In this document: positions 8,427 through 17,000 of the stretch, piece by piece
Position numbering within the stretch: the first letter of the stretch is position 1
Layout: every line of letters begins with the position of its first letter
Origin: Phallusia mammillata
Lineage: Eukaryota
Length of the DNA stretch: 64,000 nt
Assembly (NCBI GenBank): GCA_965637545.1
Contig: OZ281501.1
Span: 6,510,001-6,574,000, forward strand
Direction of reading: 5' to 3'
The notes under the pieces: generated by a model
Told to the model about the DNA's origin: nothing
The model's input: only the letters and a program-made list of their open reading frames with translations
Databases searched by the model: none
Program-made: the position numbers and the translations under genes

Positions 8427-10849
8427 AATTGAAGATCAAAAGACGTACTTTGTTAACACAAACTTAAAAACAGCAAAAAGTAAATAGTCTGTTGCAGTCT
8501 GAAACATAGCAAAAAGTTCAGTCCTGACCTGACCCGGCGAAAGCTTAAAACCAGTCAGCATTTACAGACATCTGTATGCTGAAAAGAATCAACTACAAAA
8601 TCAGTAACATTGACCCTAATCATCACTCTGTGTCACTTGTGCCAGCTTAAGCTTATGTGGCCGTATAAATCTCGGTAACAGTTGCAGATAGCGTCATTGC
8701 AAAGCAAAGCTTCCTGTTTGGGCACCGGCTTTCCATGACATCACCAGCATTGGTTTGGCACAAGCAACAGCGGCAACCCTGCCTGTGTTTACGACCAGCT
8801 CAAACTACTCAGTGCACTACAAGTCCACGCCTAGTCGCCTACATACCACAAAACTAGCAGTGTTTGCGCAAGCTGAAAAAGGGCCTGTGCAGGGCTTGAA
8901 ATGAAGAACGGCGATCTGTGCTTTGCGCGAACGCCTGGAGGTGTACGAACAAAGTCCGAACTGTCTTCACTTGTCGAATTGTAAGATAACTGTCCTTGCC
9001 ATGCATGTGTGACGTAGTATGGTATTATTTACATGGCAGTTTGGTACATTTGAGTAGGTTACAACATTTTAAAAAGCTGCTCATTTATGCTATGACTAAA
9101 TTAGTCGTAATTAGACCGGAAGTACCAACATTTAAAAGTAACATGATCCATCTGTTAATCTGTAATCTAGTAACGCCATTGTTTAATTCAACCGAAAATT
9201 CCGCGTACCGGTAGTGCTGGTACTAAATCATTAGCTGACTGCAAATAATTTATGGTTAAATTCAATATTTGTTTGAGAGAATCACACTGATTTTGCATTT
9301 GTGGTGTTTAACTAAAGACTTACGAAATTTGCAGTATTCCATCTGCCGCCTGCTATTTAAAACACCGTTTGACTTGTTTACACAGCAAACATCTCTTGAC
9401 TGCTTTCATTTTAAAACACCACTGCGACACACCGACAAAAAAATCGGTAGCGTATTTGATCGTTTAAAAAAATAGCTTGTAATTTTTCCACAAAAGCGAG
9501 GGAAATGGAAAAATAAACACGGTCAACGTTGCCAACACCGAAAAGCCGCGGTCAAGCCCGATGCGAAACGAAAAGAAAGTCGAAAAACGGCAAGGCACGA
9601 ATAGTGATGGAACTACACGGCGATCCACGAATAAAACTCCAAAAAGGAAACTTAAAAGGGTAATGTTGCTCACAATTACATGGCGAATAAAACAGAATGC
9701 GGGGTATAAGTTGAGGGCAGGTAAAAGTAGGCAAGTCTGTGTAATTTCCGTTAACTAAACTTATTTGCTAAGTAAGAAAAGCAATCTGTATTTTGAAACA
9801 CACTAAGTTGGATAAAGCAGCTATAGTACAGTAAAAATATTATCTTGACAAGTTTGTGTGACCTATTGGTTCGAATAAGCAAAGAAATACTAAACTATTT
9901 GCGCAATAAACAGACAGAGTGAAATTATCACAGACAGGCAGTGTATAGAACATTATGCTGAAGTGAAAGTCTATAAAAAGGTGGTTAGTCGAAAAGGTAC
10001 AAATTTGCAACTCACATATCAAGTTACACAACATAAAACCCCTTTTCTACCTATAAAATGTGTTATCATTTATAAAACCTGTGTAGTTTGTGTTGTACGT
10101 GAGACAAAACATCAATTTGAAGAGCTTTCACGGCAGTAGAGAATGTAATTTTTCAAAAGTTTGTAACTTATCATTTTATTGTTCAGCGGTTTAAAAACAC
10201 AGTTAGTTTTAATATTTGATATTATCACTAGAATTCCCCGCTGCATTCAGAACTATTACATAAATTTGGGTCTATTTGAAAAAAGCGTTATAGTGCAATT
10301 GACCACATAAAGTGAACAAATGCATTCTATGACAATAAAAGGACAAATCAATGCCTGCTGATTTGCTACAAGTCGCAGCCGTCGTTAGAAATCACCATAG
10401 CAAGGCGCGAAACGGGGGAATCATCAAAGCAGCAAAAGCGTTTGCAGCCGTCCCCCAAGTGGCGAAAGTTAGCTTAAAAATAGCCAATTCGCAGGCTCGG
10501 AGGCGAAGGTAATTGCAATAACAAACAAATAGAAAGAGAAACGTAATACTGCAAGAGTGGGATCGGTAATAAATAAAACAAGTGGGATATGCAAATAGGC
10601 TAACAGAGGTGGCTGGAGGGGTGTGTCTGAGGCGTGTCCGTCAGTTGACAAGCATTTTGACTGCAATTCCGTTAGGCAAAGTTCAAAGGCAGGGAGCGGT
10701 GTTCGATCAACCCTTGCACGCGGGCCCAACCTTTTGCCCCGCAGTTTCAAGCTGTACAAACGGTCCAAATTGACTGGATGGGATTCGAAAATAAAAAGCG
10801 CTGGGGCCGCACGCAGGCGATGACATCACGAGTCGGATACCTCACGTCA

Positions 10850-11006
10850 TCAAGTACCCCGCGTTTTTAGTTTAGCGCTTGGCAGGCGTCGGTAGTTGCA
10901 TCTATGAGGATGCGTTCTCGGTCCGCGACCATCTTTGCGCACTTCTCTGCAAGATAACCTTGAGTTGAAGGTCATTGCTCCACCATTGACCGCAGGTAAA
11001 CCCGAC
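10850..11006 (-). CDS. ADAMTS3: ADAMTS exon 27 (basic tail, stop)
   Basis: SGLPAV...[37 protein letters not shown] after a 77-nt intron. Confidence 0.7.
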
Positions 11007-14000
11007 CTGTAAGGTTACAAAAGTTCATTAGATCTGTAAAATTCAAACAGAATGCAAGAAAAATACATCGTGGTTGCACTTACTGGTAACAAGGCACCAC
11101 ACACATTGATTGTGACGTGACAGGAAGCTTGCAGGCGGATGACGTCATCCACGCTAATTGAGCTACATCCCAACATCCGTATATGGGTCTCCTGTCAAAG
11201 CAAAAACAGCGTTAGCACGATTTTTTGACGTATGACAGCCGGTGATGTATTTCCGCTGCGGAAAGGAATTTATCCACGCCTAATGAATGCCGGTTTGTTA
11301 CTCAATTCCTCATTTGGAATACATATATTTGTTAGTTTAATTATTTCCTCCACGAGAAGAAATTTTCATGCCTGAAATATAAGTCGCTGGAACTATCTGG
11401 ATTTTTTGTGGAAAGTGGCCTTTCGTATGTATTTCTGTTGTGTTACTGAATATATGTATCAGAAATCGTCTGGTCTGAGCATCGTACAACTTTGACATTC
11501 TACACTGTGTCACGAAGCTATTGTATGGATTCTAATTTGTTTTGACATTTGTTTAACCGTGTTTGTTTCACGTGTGGTTCACCTTTATTAAACTACTTGG
11601 GGATTAATAAAATCAAGTTTGTATTATTCACAATCATTTATGACACTATTTTTTCCCCAAAAACCTTTTCAACCATTTCCTAAAATTACATACGCCAAGA
11701 CGAATTTAGATGTACCAAGCTCTTAAGTTGGATTTCTTTCGCCACAATTTGGGAAACAGCCTTCAATAAAAAAGCCTAAGCTTGCATCTCAAAAACAATT
11801 TGAATACCTTTTTCCAATTCCACATATTTTCACATCACATCTCCCCCAGCTCCTTACGACTGAAGTCACGTCTCTCTTGCGCCGTCCAGCGGTCGCACCG
11901 TCATTGGAAGCCGAAATCCTACTCCCGTTGTTGGTAACCATGGAAACAGGAGTACTAAGAGTATCGTTGCGAGGAGCGAGAGTCTGGATCACTTCACTAA
12001 ACTCCGAGTCCTCTGGATCATCGTCGTAGTCCTCCGAGCTCTCCATCGCAGTCTCCTCATCTACATCCTGTGCTCCTTGGTCCTGACTTTCGGATGCGGA
12101 TGTTGGAAACTGGAGGACTTGAGGATGGACAAAGATCTCGCCGTGGATAGAGGGAATGCCAGTAGCGTTTGATTCAAGTGATGTCTGAAGAAAGAGAGGG
12201 AATTGATTTGTCCACGTTAATAAAATAGATACATAATTAGAGAGATGGTGCTTTGAATTTAGTGATATTAAACTTCGGTTAAACCGGATTCGGTTAATCT
12301 GGATCTTCGCCTAATCAGGACAATTTCTTTGGTGCCAACTGGTCCAGATTAACCGAGGTTTACTGTAGTAGCACTTTTCTACCCCTCAATGGACAATTTT
12401 GGTTGGTACATTTTCTGAAACGGTCGACCAAGCAAGTTTAACACTGCTTTTCTTAAGTTACAAAGTTTAAATTCAACCAAAATTCGATTACGGTACTGGA
12501 ACACCCTTCTACACAAAATAGCAAACAATTATAATTTTTTCTTCATCTATATTTTTTGTTTCCTTTTTTGGTTTATTTTTTGGGTGTTACCACATTATTG
12601 TGATGTGTACGACAGCTTGTGGTAAAACGTAAGATTTAATGAAGTCCTTATGTTTTCATGCATACCTGAAACTCTTAAAAAATGCACCACATTTACATTT
12701 TTAAATTTCAGTTTAGTTTCATACCTCGTTGTTGCCGTTGAGAGTTCCGTTGGAAAAAAGATTAGAAATAGCGACGCTTAGTGGACGACCGGCAGATGAT
12801 TGCCCCGACCGCGAGGTGACGCCATTCTGCCTTTGATGTTTCTCGCAAGAGCGACAGCAGAGTTTCCGATATCCAGTAATGTCACAGTAGCTAGTAATGG
12901 CATCCAAACGGCAGAAGATTGACTGGTCAGTTGTACAAGGTGCAGCTACAATACAAAAACACCAATTTTGTTATTGTGTTTTCAAACAAAAATTGTATAT
13001 CTAGTTTAGTGGTTCCCAACCGGGGAGGATTTTTAAATTTTCGGTAAATATACACGTAATTTCTGCGAACATAACCTGTGTTGTTGATAAAAGGCCCATT
13101 TTTAAATGATCTTTGTAAGGTTTAGCATCTATTCTATTATGTAGTATATTAGGGAGAAATGGAAGGTTTTGATTTGTTAAGGGAGTAACTCGTCGAAAAA
13201 AATGGGATCCATGTTCTAGGTTTACATTTTTTAGATTCATTTGCAAAACGAAACTCGCTAGTTCGCTGCCTTAAGCTATTGATTGACCTTCTTGTCTTGG
13301 ACTTGTTAAAAACCTACGCTGCAGGTTGTTATACAAGGTTGTTATAAATTAAGTTCGGCCAAGAACGATTTAAAACACACCGCATAAGGAACTCGAATCT
13401 TGCATCGATTTTGTATCATTCCAAATATTAATGTCAGTGCTTGTGTTAGCTGGGATATATCTACAGTATATGTTTGAAAAGTGCTTAGTAAGCAAAACAT
13501 GCGTTATATATAAAAAAATCAGTGTTCATGCGAGTCATGCGATTTGGCAGCAAATACCTTCCGCAATTGTGGACCGTACGGGCGCTTGAGTTGTGGTAAT
13601 GCCTGCATGGCAAAAGCTGGGGTTTAGATAAGCTGCTGCTGCGTTAAATCGATTTCCAATTTAACGCAAGTACGTGCAATTATTTAGCAACCGATTACAA
13701 TGCCAATAACGTAAAGCAAATTGTAGCTCAGCTTCAGCACATATATAATAGCAAATGTTGTGTATGTTGTTAAATATAATAAAAAACGCAAAAAGCCGCG
13801 TTGCTATAGCAAATTAGCTCATGGTATTGAACATATACTGTAGTGTAAATAATCCATTTTATGTCAAAAAGCCATCCCTGTTTTTGCAGCAAAAATTGAG
13901 ACATTGTCCTAAAAGTTACACAAAGCAACAAGTAAATACAATTTTGGAAACCCCATTTCTAGGCAGCAAATTTCATACACCTTTTAGTCAGCAAAGCAAC

Positions 14001-17000
14001 AGCTCTTTTTAAAGGCAGCAGTGTAAACAATTTTTAATTATTCAATAAGAAGTTCTTACGTTGGCATTCGGTCACTTGGCAGTGTTGTACGTCACTTGGT
14101 CGATCTCCTAGACACTCGCTAGCGCTAACGAGTCGACTACGGCCTCTGCAAATGACCTGGCGTCGTTGAATGCCTTCACCGCATGTTGTGGAACACTGCA
14201 GAATTTTAAAACAATATTTGTTCAGTTGAAACCGAGTAGAATATTGAACCAATTCGTGGATTTTTTATTATGATTTAACATTAGTTTTTTTTCGAAATAG
14301 CCTGATTATTTGAATTCTGTGAAGAAATTTTCACATGTAAGTAAACCATCGATTTTATTCGTTAGCTGCTCCCGTTTCCCCATATTCGGTTTATTTCCAC
14401 TGATTAAATAAAGTGTTTCATTTTATTTTATTTAGTGAATTTTATAGTTATTTTCACGGGTTTCAAACCCAGGATGCTCCAGAGGAAAGATCTCAGCTTT
14501 TTTGCGTCTGTATATTGGATCTTAACTTTTTTGCGTCTGTATATGGGAGCGCCGGACCATTCGGCCAAGTTGTCTCATACCTCGGACCAGTTTCCATAGC
14601 GCCAACTAGCGGGACACGCAGGTTTGGTGCAGGACTGCTGAGTGTCGGGTCTGGGTTGACTCAAGCAATACGCGTCAGGTATGCTTTCAGCCACACCGTA
14701 GTTGTTTGTGCGACGACACGAAACAGCTCGACGTTTGATTCCAGGGACACCACAAGATCGTGAACATTCCTCCCAGCTGCCAGTATGCCATCTGAAAAAA
14801 TATGTTTAAATTGGACACACTGTACTTGTACGAAGATCGTATTGTTTAGTGTGTTGTCCTAATGAAAGCGTCTCGACTGGGAAATCGAAAGGACGGTTTG
14901 CTTTATTATAAAACATCTTAAAGACCAATACAATTTTAAATCATGTACAAAATTGTAATGTGCTATAATGTGTGTACAAGAGATGCGGTGAGACATTTTG
15001 GAGAAGATAAAAGGTGGAAAAAGTAGTTTCAAATAGTACCTAATAAGGTCGCATGGTGAACTGCACGGCTGAATAGTTGGTTTCGGAGTTCGCCCAGAAC
15101 ATTTTCTTTTGTTCACCCATCTCTCACCGATCGTACTACGACAACCGTAGCGGGATGACCTAAGCAGGATAAAAATACTTTAACTTGTAACCAAGGTAAT
15201 ATAAATCAAAACTCTCTGATCCAGGTAAAAAAGTCTTACACGATTTAGACGGTGGTACAGGATGGTGAAAGGGATCAAAGAATCTCTACGTATTAGCGAA
15301 GTATCTATAACTACGCACAAAGAACCATCAACAGAACTATTATTTTCGCCTATGAAAAGACATGCCTGTTTCTGTCTTATTTAAAGAGAATCATATTTAA
15401 CAGGCGAAATTAATATTTCTGTTTTTGAAAGTAAAAGATAAAAAAAAACAGTGATCGTAAATGTTGCTGTTTTTAAAGATTTTTAGCATAATATACGTGT
15501 TTCAAGCATGGCACAGACTATAAAAAATACATTTATGGTGGTGTTTGTAGAAACATGTTCGTCCAAAAGAGCATAATAATTTAAAAAAGACATACCTCAT
15601 TCCGTTTCCACAAGATACTGAACATGACGTCCACTTGCGGATGACGTATCGATACGTGTCACGTGGTCTCGGCACGTTATTTACGTGCATGATGTAACTA
15701 TAACGAATGCCTACTCGCATTGTCCGCCTCTGAATCAGAATCTGACAAAAGAAAAACTTGCGGTGATTTTGTGGAAATTGAAACGCAGGGTTTAACACAT
15801 GGTCAACAGTTTGGATATAAAGTTGCGCAAAAATAAATAAAAAACCGACTGCCCTGTCCAAGAACTGCCCAGTAAAAAAACTGCATTGTCAAACCGATAT
15901 AGTTGCAAATTTTCTAATGCCTTGTTTATGTGTTTGAAGAAAAATGAAATACAGTAAATCTTGGTTAATCCGGACCCGTTTGGACCAAACAATTTGTCCG
16001 GATTAAGCGAAGATCCGAATTAACCGATGTCGATTACTTAAAGCCTTACAACAATACAAATCATTTGTACCTCAAGTTTTGCACGAATTAGGCGAAGATC
16101 CGGATTAACCCAATTCGTTTCAACCGAGGTTTACTGTATAACGCATTTGAACTTTATTCTTAGCGAAAAGTTCAACGACACACAATTCTCCCGCTAAACA
16201 ACAATTACGCCTACAATATGACGCAACGCACGAACGCACGCAGAAAAACATCCAACCGCGCATAAAACCTTTATATCCGCCTCACATGCTCTTTAGGGGC
16301 CAAAGTCCCATCCGGTGACAACAAAAACACTACAGCTCCTACCACGAAATGATTCATCACCCAATGCACCTGATTGTCATTAGTAAACAAGGTCTACGTA
16401 CGGAAAGGGATACGTGCGTCATCACATTTGCAACCAAGCTCGAAACCGCTTCGTTAAGTGAAGATTTCTGTCAAGGGGGTCTTAGCATCAAGCTACCAAC
16501 AATATAATGCCTTAGGTATGGTAAATTTTCCGTTAACAGACAGGCTGGATTTACAGACAGTTGTTTGAGTCATAACAACTGATTTTAAAGAACTGCAAAA
16601 GGTTGTGTTTGAAGACAAGGCTAATTACCCTCACGGTTTAGTTGATGTGGTAACATTAGCACCCTATTACGCATAGATTCGTTTAGTAGCTTTTAAAGTG
16701 GACTGAAGTGAGCAAAACCGTATCCTGTCTGCTGTCGTCGTAACCTCATATCACCCAAAGACTAAGAAAGATTTCTCTAGAACTCAAGTGATCTTGTTAG
16801 GCGAAATCATGACAAATGATCGTGGGATTAGTTTTGACCGCAAAACAGGTAATTCTGCCACAGTGGGTACGTGTGAATAGAAATACGTCAATGTATGTTA
16901 TCGCCATGATTGTCAAAGAGCTAAAAGCGACTTGCGATCGTGAATTAAGTTTCTGAAGCTAATAAAAGTAGGACATTAATTTTAGTTCCTATTTGGTTTT

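Follow-up and report, generated by a model that had tools for sequence, protein, structure and literature searches.

A conserved, probably convertase-released copy of TSP1 repeat 2 in the ascidian-restricted tail of an ADAMTS2/3/14 orthologue from Phallusia mammillata

Proteases of the ADAMTS2/3/14 clade share a layout that runs from a prodomain through M12B protease, disintegrin-like, TSP1, Cys-rich, and spacer domains to three more TSP1 repeats and a PLAC domain; for ADAMTS2, the layout is taken here from reviews (PMC4349717, PMC12362006). Binding to heparan sulfate is described for ADAMTS1, 2, 4, and 5 (PMC8275829). ADAMTS12 is processed at its C-terminal end and binds substrate through its distal repeats (PMC3712723, PMC13673249). 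Outside the family, SOD3 has a heparin-binding domain at its C-terminus that can be removed by furin (PMC12774472). The gene considered here corresponds to the one orthologue of ADAMTS2/3/14 that ascidians have (PMC549037), and the Ciona sequence in the 2005 family alignment has 997 aa and stops at PLAC (PMC549037, supplement 2). In UniProt, the Ciona gene appears as two entries (P0122, P0138), a 1049-aa protein that ends ten residues past PLAC and a separate, uncharacterised 177-aa tail. Sequences of the region past PLAC, here called the tail, are already in public databases, where the module they contain is unannotated: older Ciona gene models split the tail off or end at PLAC, and Pfam misses the module. 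No description of the tail was found in the titles or abstract openings of published literature on ascidian ADAMTS3 and on tunicate ADAMTS duplication or furin; Huxley-Jones 2005, on the six Ciona ADAMTS, may mention it.

The window, a stretch of 64,000 nucleotides from the genome of Phallusia mammillata, contains an ADAMTS gene of 27 exons on the minus strand, from 51240 to 10850. A database protein of 1367 aa labelled ADAMTS3 of Phallusia mammillata (P0001) contains the entire frame, tail included; all 26 of its junctions fall on GT/GC-AG sites without a mismatch, and the upstream exons of the gene rest on this mapping. One intron in the protease domain (36181/32196, minus strand) is of the GC-AG type. 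Three minus-strand exons encode most of the tail. The exon at 12184-11808 contains an acidic, Ser/Thr-rich linker, the sequence GRRKR|DV, and the first half of a Cys module, and as a query it returned a single protein, P0001, at 100% identity. The second half of the module is encoded by the exon at 11191-11084, and the exon at 11006-10850 supplies the basic end and the stop. The 3' UTR (10251..10849) extends at least to 10251 in record 2 of contig X1, and hexamers of the AATAAA type lie at 10213 and 10180 (minus strand).

Splicing was checked over region 9800-16000 in assembled contigs of four runs (4 of the 20 listed), each from a different study. The runs are RNA by inference rather than by record, and the spliced joints themselves serve as evidence. 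Junctions 12725/12184 and 11808/11191 are spliced with canonical ends in contigs of three of the four runs, and 11084/11006 in contigs of all four; single contigs, X1 (3925 nt) and X4 (4460 nt), reach from the TSP1 #2 exon past the stop codon and on into the 3' UTR. Because contigs bridge all three junctions, which the first-pass annotation had proposed from the DNA, the tail exons are part of the ADAMTS mRNA as it claimed. A separate gene, or an mRNA that ends at PLAC, is ruled out by the single contigs that span the junctions. An in-frame alternative exon of 45 nt (13558..13602, minus strand), between TSP1 #4 and PLAC, is present in contigs X1 and X14 and skipped in X4. A good-looking acceptor-like site lies at 11033 (minus strand), 27 nt upstream of 11006, and splicing there would bring a stop six codons later, with loss of the two-Cys basic piece; all four runs take 11006 and none was seen to use 11033, a negative limited by the fact that contigs drop rare forms. 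An intronic repeat, probably a small mobile element, occurs in opposite orientations at about 12269-12363 and at 15941-16000, and also in many unrelated contigs. By six-frame translation, a neighbouring gene of the PDZ-LIM type lies on the same strand from about 8435 down to 2000, with PDZ-like exons at the N-terminal end and several LIM-like exons.

By Pfam, P0001 has a prodomain and reprolysin, Cys-rich, spacer, and TSP1 domains, and Pfam together with alignment recovers the whole ADAMTS2/3/14 layout. The zinc motif HExxHxxGxxH is at residue 446, and RSKR|H at residues 296-299 marks the boundary of the prodomain. The six cysteines of the PLAC exon (12725..12945, minus strand), which also carries the start of the linker, align with those of vertebrate PLAC; the Pfam PLAC match (E 4.7) is below the cut-off. 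Over residues 300-1125, the best 120 of 2595 relatives include proteins of Ciona (59% identity), Clavelina (57%), and Styela (52%), as well as vertebrate ADAMTS3/14 (46-49%). One of these 120 is an SCO-spondin-like protein, and the remainder are ADAMTS3/14-named or unnamed look-alikes. A second TSP1 repeat of the YGC type also places the protein with this clade. By its sequence, the Phallusia gene belongs to the ADAMTS2/3/14 clade; its procollagen N-proteinase activity is putative.

The orthologues of Ciona (P0002) and Clavelina (P0003), with their long isoforms, have a tail of the same layout: an acidic linker, R-x-K/R-R, and eight cysteines. The furin-type site and all the cysteines singled out in the first-pass annotation are thus conserved in both animals. 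In Phallusia, the linker comprises residues 1115-1254 (in the tail exon, 11885..12184, minus strand), 140 residues with a net charge of -16, 33 Ser/Thr, and five N-x-S/T sequons; its charge ranges from -16 to -39 across the three species, and its identity between them is 23-30%. The proprotein-convertase consensus, RRKR|DV in Phallusia (residues 1255-1258; 11873..11884, minus strand), RQRR|SM in Ciona, and RRKR|ST in Clavelina, lies in a low-complexity linker in each and 11-14 residues before the first cysteine in 3/3 species. In shuffled sequences, the chance that a motif of this kind falls within the final 25 residues is 0.002-0.006 per species, a figure that, because the three species are related, reflects retention and not three events. 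The P1' residues are small (D, S, S), and the sequence has the features of a furin substrate, in an exposed linker of a secreted protein. Convertase P-domain matches are found on four contigs of the genome. A convertase consensus is not always cut (PMC3281273). Cleavage at RRKR|DV is nevertheless predicted here as likely, since R-x-K/R-R is retained while its flanks diverge. Because the protein is secreted and its prodomain is bounded by RSKR|H, the tail would meet the convertases that act on the prodomain.

The piece released by this predicted cut in Phallusia would have 109 residues and eight cysteines, with a computed mass of 12.1 kDa and a pI of 10.2, in agreement with the Cys-rich basic piece of about 12 kDa that had been forecast; across ascidians, the predicted module measures 12-16 kDa. 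The balance of K+R minus D+E in the predicted pieces is +14, +16, and +15, despite their differing sequences. The TSP1-like part contributes +4, +3, and 0 of this charge, versus +8, +12, and +11 in the original TSP1 #2, and most of it lies in the last exon. Tyrosines occur in the most acidic stretch of each linker: EDYDDD in Phallusia (about 12091-12002, minus strand), DMYYDE in Ciona (residues 1157-1164), and DNYYGDD in Clavelina (residues 1255-1264). These acidic Tyr clusters resemble contexts of tyrosine sulfation.

A furin-type motif is also found near the C-terminus of vertebrate ADAMTS14 (P0013, P0015, P0024, P0065, P0099, and others), in the form R-x-R-R|D/E and mostly 18 residues before the end. 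The strict R-x-K/R-R is present in 29 of 68 ADAMTS14-side tails and in 0 of 47 on the ADAMTS3 side, with K at P4 in several more; teleost, shark, ray, and frog sequences carry it. This motif is possibly an overlooked convertase site, and kinship with the ascidian site is conjecture.

The six-cysteine part of the tail, judged by profiles and exon structure, is a diverged copy of the gene's own TSP1 #2, the origin first proposed for it. The original repeat is divided between an exon at 15596..15648 (minus strand), which encodes its first half (residues 893-910) and whose junction is seen in three of the four runs, and a phase 2-2 exon at 15040..15159 (minus strand), which encodes YGC through C-x3-C and is the template of the tail copy. 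The copy is divided likewise, into a first half with W, C1, and C2 (11808..11872, minus strand) and a phase 2-2 exon with YGC, W, and C4-C6 (11084..11191, minus strand). The claim that the two repeats have matching introns stands for the phase-2 intron that splits an Arg codon (R910 in TSP1 #2, R1280 in the copy), four codons ahead of the Tyr in YGC. It stands in part for the second introns, both of which are phase 2 but lie two codons apart, four codons past the last Cys in TSP1 #2 (R950) and two codons past it in the copy (Q1316).

For each of the four TSP1 repeats, profiles were made with 60 of 126 vertebrate sequences and with those of four ascidians. On the three tails, the vertebrate TSP1 #2 profile scores 7.5, 4.7, and 7.6 bits and the tunicate one 15.9, 12.4, and 18.5 bits, values that none of 200 shuffles reaches; profiles of TSP1 #1, #3, and #4 give at most 4.0 bits, and #2 alone beats every one of the 200 shuffles in each of the three species. 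Run the other way, a profile of the tails scores vertebrate #2 at 14.4 bits on average, versus 1.7-3.4 for #1, #3, and #4. HHalign gives the tail copy 89.7% to tunicate #2, 75.8% to vertebrate #2, and 0.2-7.4% to the other repeats (an SCO-spondin control recovered one repeat and was left out). The HMM search that had been suggested was negative by Pfam, with PF19030 and PF00090 below cut-off (best E 0.37 and 1.4, in one of three members, and no match for the Phallusia tail), and positive with the vertebrate and tunicate TSP1 #2 profiles. In the ESM Atlas, TSP1 clusters lie closest to the copy (score 0.90, 162 of 256 features), which is a lead only. AlphaFold2 models of the tail are of low confidence (pLDDT 37.7 and 44.3), a Foldseek search with the second of these gave no match, and a PDB sequence search with the tail returned nothing below E 0.17.

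Finer features agree with this origin. A W before C1, C-G after C2, and six cysteines in TSR register are invariant in 3/3 tails, and the putative fold of the copy is a disulfide-knit TSR. The third-cysteine signature YGC/FGC is found in 62 of 62 matched TSP1 #2 rows, in none of #1, #3, and #4, and in no other ADAMTS rows examined; the tails have YGC, FGC, and YAC. Cysteine spacing is 4-10-13-9/8-3 in the copies versus 3-10-13-11-3 in tunicate TSP1 #2, whose final gap of three (C-x3-C, 4/4 tunicates) is four in 60/60 vertebrates. The copy has diverged from its original by four residues between C1 and C2, a shorter C4-C5 loop, and less charge. The O-fucosylation motif of POFUT2, CXX(S/T)CXXG, is common in TSRs and not required (PMC5043182); its core C-x-x-S/T-C is found in repeats #1-#4 of the three species and in none of the three copies. 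Each copy is 28-32% identical to its own TSP1 #2, whereas copies of different species are more alike, which argues for one old duplication event. The presence of C-x3-C in tunicate but not vertebrate TSP1 #2 suggests that this event followed the splitting off of the tunicate line; C-x3-C ends are also seen in the second repeat of ADAMTS9/20/GON-1. At the DNA level, the phase 2-2 exon of the copy and that of TSP1 #2 are no more alike than chance would give, with 162 of 1000 codon shuffles scoring as high.

The last coding exon (10850..11006, minus strand), defined by contigs and alignment, encodes two conserved cysteines, an invariant P-R-x5-C, the basic end, and the stop. It follows the TSP1 #2 copy after a phase-2 intron, a position like that of TSP1 #3, and the first-pass annotation had taken it for a degenerate TSP1 #3 (proposed source exon 14581..14791, minus strand, from sequence comparison). 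Position and spacing would fit this: C-x16-C occurs in two of the three species, every TSP1 #3 row has a C3-C4 gap of 16, and the third Cys of TSP1 #3 comes first of 40 when ranked by the context of C7. In repeats of the TSP1 #3 type, the third and fourth cysteines pair with each other, so that retention of this pair alone would be plausible. No score is significant, however. BLASTP gives no alignment with TSP1 #3, HHalign gives 3.0% versus 5.0% to vertebrate #2, and, with the TSP1 #3 profile, 10, 56, and 178 of 200 shuffles score as high as the exon in the three species. The P-R-x5-C end fits TSP1 #2 equally, with MAFFT placing the end of TSP1 #2 on it rather than on C5-C6, and the context of C8 ranks TSP1 #2 cysteines first. 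TSP1 #3 is a candidate source of the exon, suggested by position and the C-x16-C spacing.

Between species, the identity of the TSP1 #2 copies is 39-55%, equal to that of the original repeat (39-55%), and the tail module has acquired invariants of its own in 3/3 species: S before C4, V-x-P-C-Y, and P-R-x5-C. Both Styela models, which are gene models and not genome sequence, end 26 residues past PLAC. The absence of TSP1 after PLAC in vertebrate orthologues, as first claimed, is borne out by 0 of 115 ADAMTS3/14 sequences with a TSP1-like motif there, a set in which no sequence is named ADAMTS2, and for ADAMTS2 by the reviews cited above. Five of the 115 have at least two cysteines after PLAC, and in one of the five these belong to a second PLAC. 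In a fish ADAMTS14-like protein (P0006), a second PLAC copy follows a Ser/Thr linker, another duplication within this part of the protein. The module is single copy in the Phallusia genome. A profile search of 1.84 billion representatives found no stand-alone homologue of the tail, bar the Ciona fragment of the same gene, and the same search missed P0001 and P0003, so that absence elsewhere does not follow from it; an unrelated repeat protein that it returned at E 1e-5 was rejected. Word-based searches with the tail find P0001 only, though Ciona and Clavelina carry it, which makes blanks weakly informative. A metagenome scan gave 57 pattern matches, none of which was confirmed.

Taken together, the tail holds a conserved, ascidian-restricted, and probably convertase-released copy of TSP1 #2. 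One gain on the line to Phlebobranchia and Aplousobranchia is the simplest reading of these sequences, and we infer that the exons of TSP1 #2 were duplicated once, later than the tunicate/vertebrate split and earlier than the parting of Phlebobranchia and Aplousobranchia. The tail carriers in the data are three species, and the timing rests on the Styela models and vertebrates, in a set with no amphioxus, echinoderm, thaliacean, or appendicularian orthologue. Published dates place the Ciona/Phallusia split at 285 +/- 37 Mya and the stolidobranch split at 389 +/- 32 Mya; by the former, the layout has been retained for about 285 million years (PMC5899321).

The favored explanation, to which a probability of about 0.45 is given, is that the module serves as a detachable, polyanion-binding anchor, with both binding and cleavage predicted. 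The basic module would bind sulfated polyanions and anchor uncut enzyme in the matrix; a proprotein convertase, of those that also remove the prodomain, would then cut at R-x-K/R-R and free the enzyme from its anchor. Partial or timed cutting would set the share of anchored versus free enzyme. The conserved cysteine frame and a charge near +15 point to binding of sulfated polyanions, for which the heparan sulfate binding of several ADAMTS and the furin-removable basic part of SOD3 offer precedents. Against an anchor, the module could be masked by the acidic linker through binding in cis, and the TSP1 copy taken alone carries less basic charge than its original. The chief alternative is a brake, by which the TSP1 #2 copy, as a C-terminal prodomain or exosite mimic, would fold back on the enzyme or compete for its substrate until cut. 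Full activity of ADAMTS2 requires its second and fourth TSRs, and partial removal of the region past them raises activity 3-4-fold (PMC12362006, citing Colige 2005); the second repeat is the unit that was duplicated and placed in that C-terminal region. However, a copy so diverged (28-32% identity) and devoid of the basic surface and O-fucosylation motif may not act as a mimic, and latency is already supplied by the N-terminal prodomain with its RSKR|H, which leaves a brake rather unlikely.

The strong consensus site in a flexible linker, the pI of about 10, and a module conserved with its own new invariants would also suit an independent product, in which the enzyme is the carrier of a cationic Cys-rich peptide (matrix ligand, signal, or defence) released one-to-one. 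This is unlikely for a module that is single copy in its own genome and that, among the 1.84 billion representatives, has no stand-alone homologue save the Ciona fragment. A combined scheme, a two-product precursor cut at both ends whose module is a detachable brake or a separate ligand and in which the R-x-R-R|D of ADAMTS14 is a vertebrate remnant of the same step, is likewise improbable. If uncleaved, the module would remain as a fifth TSR at the distal end and add an exosite on a mucin-like arm, in the manner of ADAMTS7/12; the four TSRs past the mucin domain of ADAMTS12 bind COMP (PMC3712723), and dense O-glycosylation near the site, deduced from 33 Ser/Thr in 140 residues, could block the cut. 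The full R-x-K/R-R at the same place in all three species, between diverged flanks, makes a permanently attached repeat quite unlikely. Very improbable is a module borrowed from another TSP1 gene, or ancestral and lost in vertebrates and Styela, or a functionless relic. Such histories would accommodate the C-x3-C of ADAMTS9/20/GON-1, the lost DNA likeness to the #2 exon (162/1000), the R-x-K/R-R of 29/68 ADAMTS14-side tails, mostly about 18 residues from the end, and a comparison set of chordates without outgroups. They are opposed by the YGC/FGC mark, specific to TSP1 #2 of this clade (62/62 rows), by the intron shared with the gene's own #2, and, for a relic, by conservation equal to that of the original repeat.

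The findings concern a single gene of a single group of animals, with a function that is predicted. The copied repeat is one that ADAMTS2 needs for full activity, and it sits where removal activates ADAMTS2; the ascidian enzyme is thus a clean natural test of C-terminal control of procollagen N-proteinases. The comparison also draws attention to the furin-type motif conserved close to the C-terminus of fish ADAMTS14.

The ascidian enzyme resembles vertebrate ADAMTS2/3/14 in its domain order from signal peptide to PLAC and in a Cys-poor region past PLAC. A TSP1 repeat past PLAC, behind a convertase site, is a layout not seen in the vertebrate enzymes. ADAMTS2 trims its own tail by autocatalysis and not at a furin site that precedes a folded module. 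The module shares W-x-x-C, six cysteines in register, and C-G-x-G with the TSP1_ADAMTS repeat (PF19030), from which it differs in its sub-cut-off score, the four residues between C1 and C2, the lost O-fucosylation motif, and the shorter C4-C5 loop. Like the ascidian protein, ADAMTS7/12 have TSP1 repeats separated by a mucin-like linker; theirs precedes four canonical repeats with PLAC last, whereas the ascidian arrangement is one diverged repeat after PLAC, behind a convertase consensus. The heparin-binding domain of SOD3 is a short linear basic stretch. It is unrelated in sequence to the ascidian tail, which is predicted to be a disulfide module. The two are alike in a basic, furin-removable C-terminal part that governs matrix binding, experimentally for SOD3 (PMC12774472) and by inference for the ascidian enzyme.
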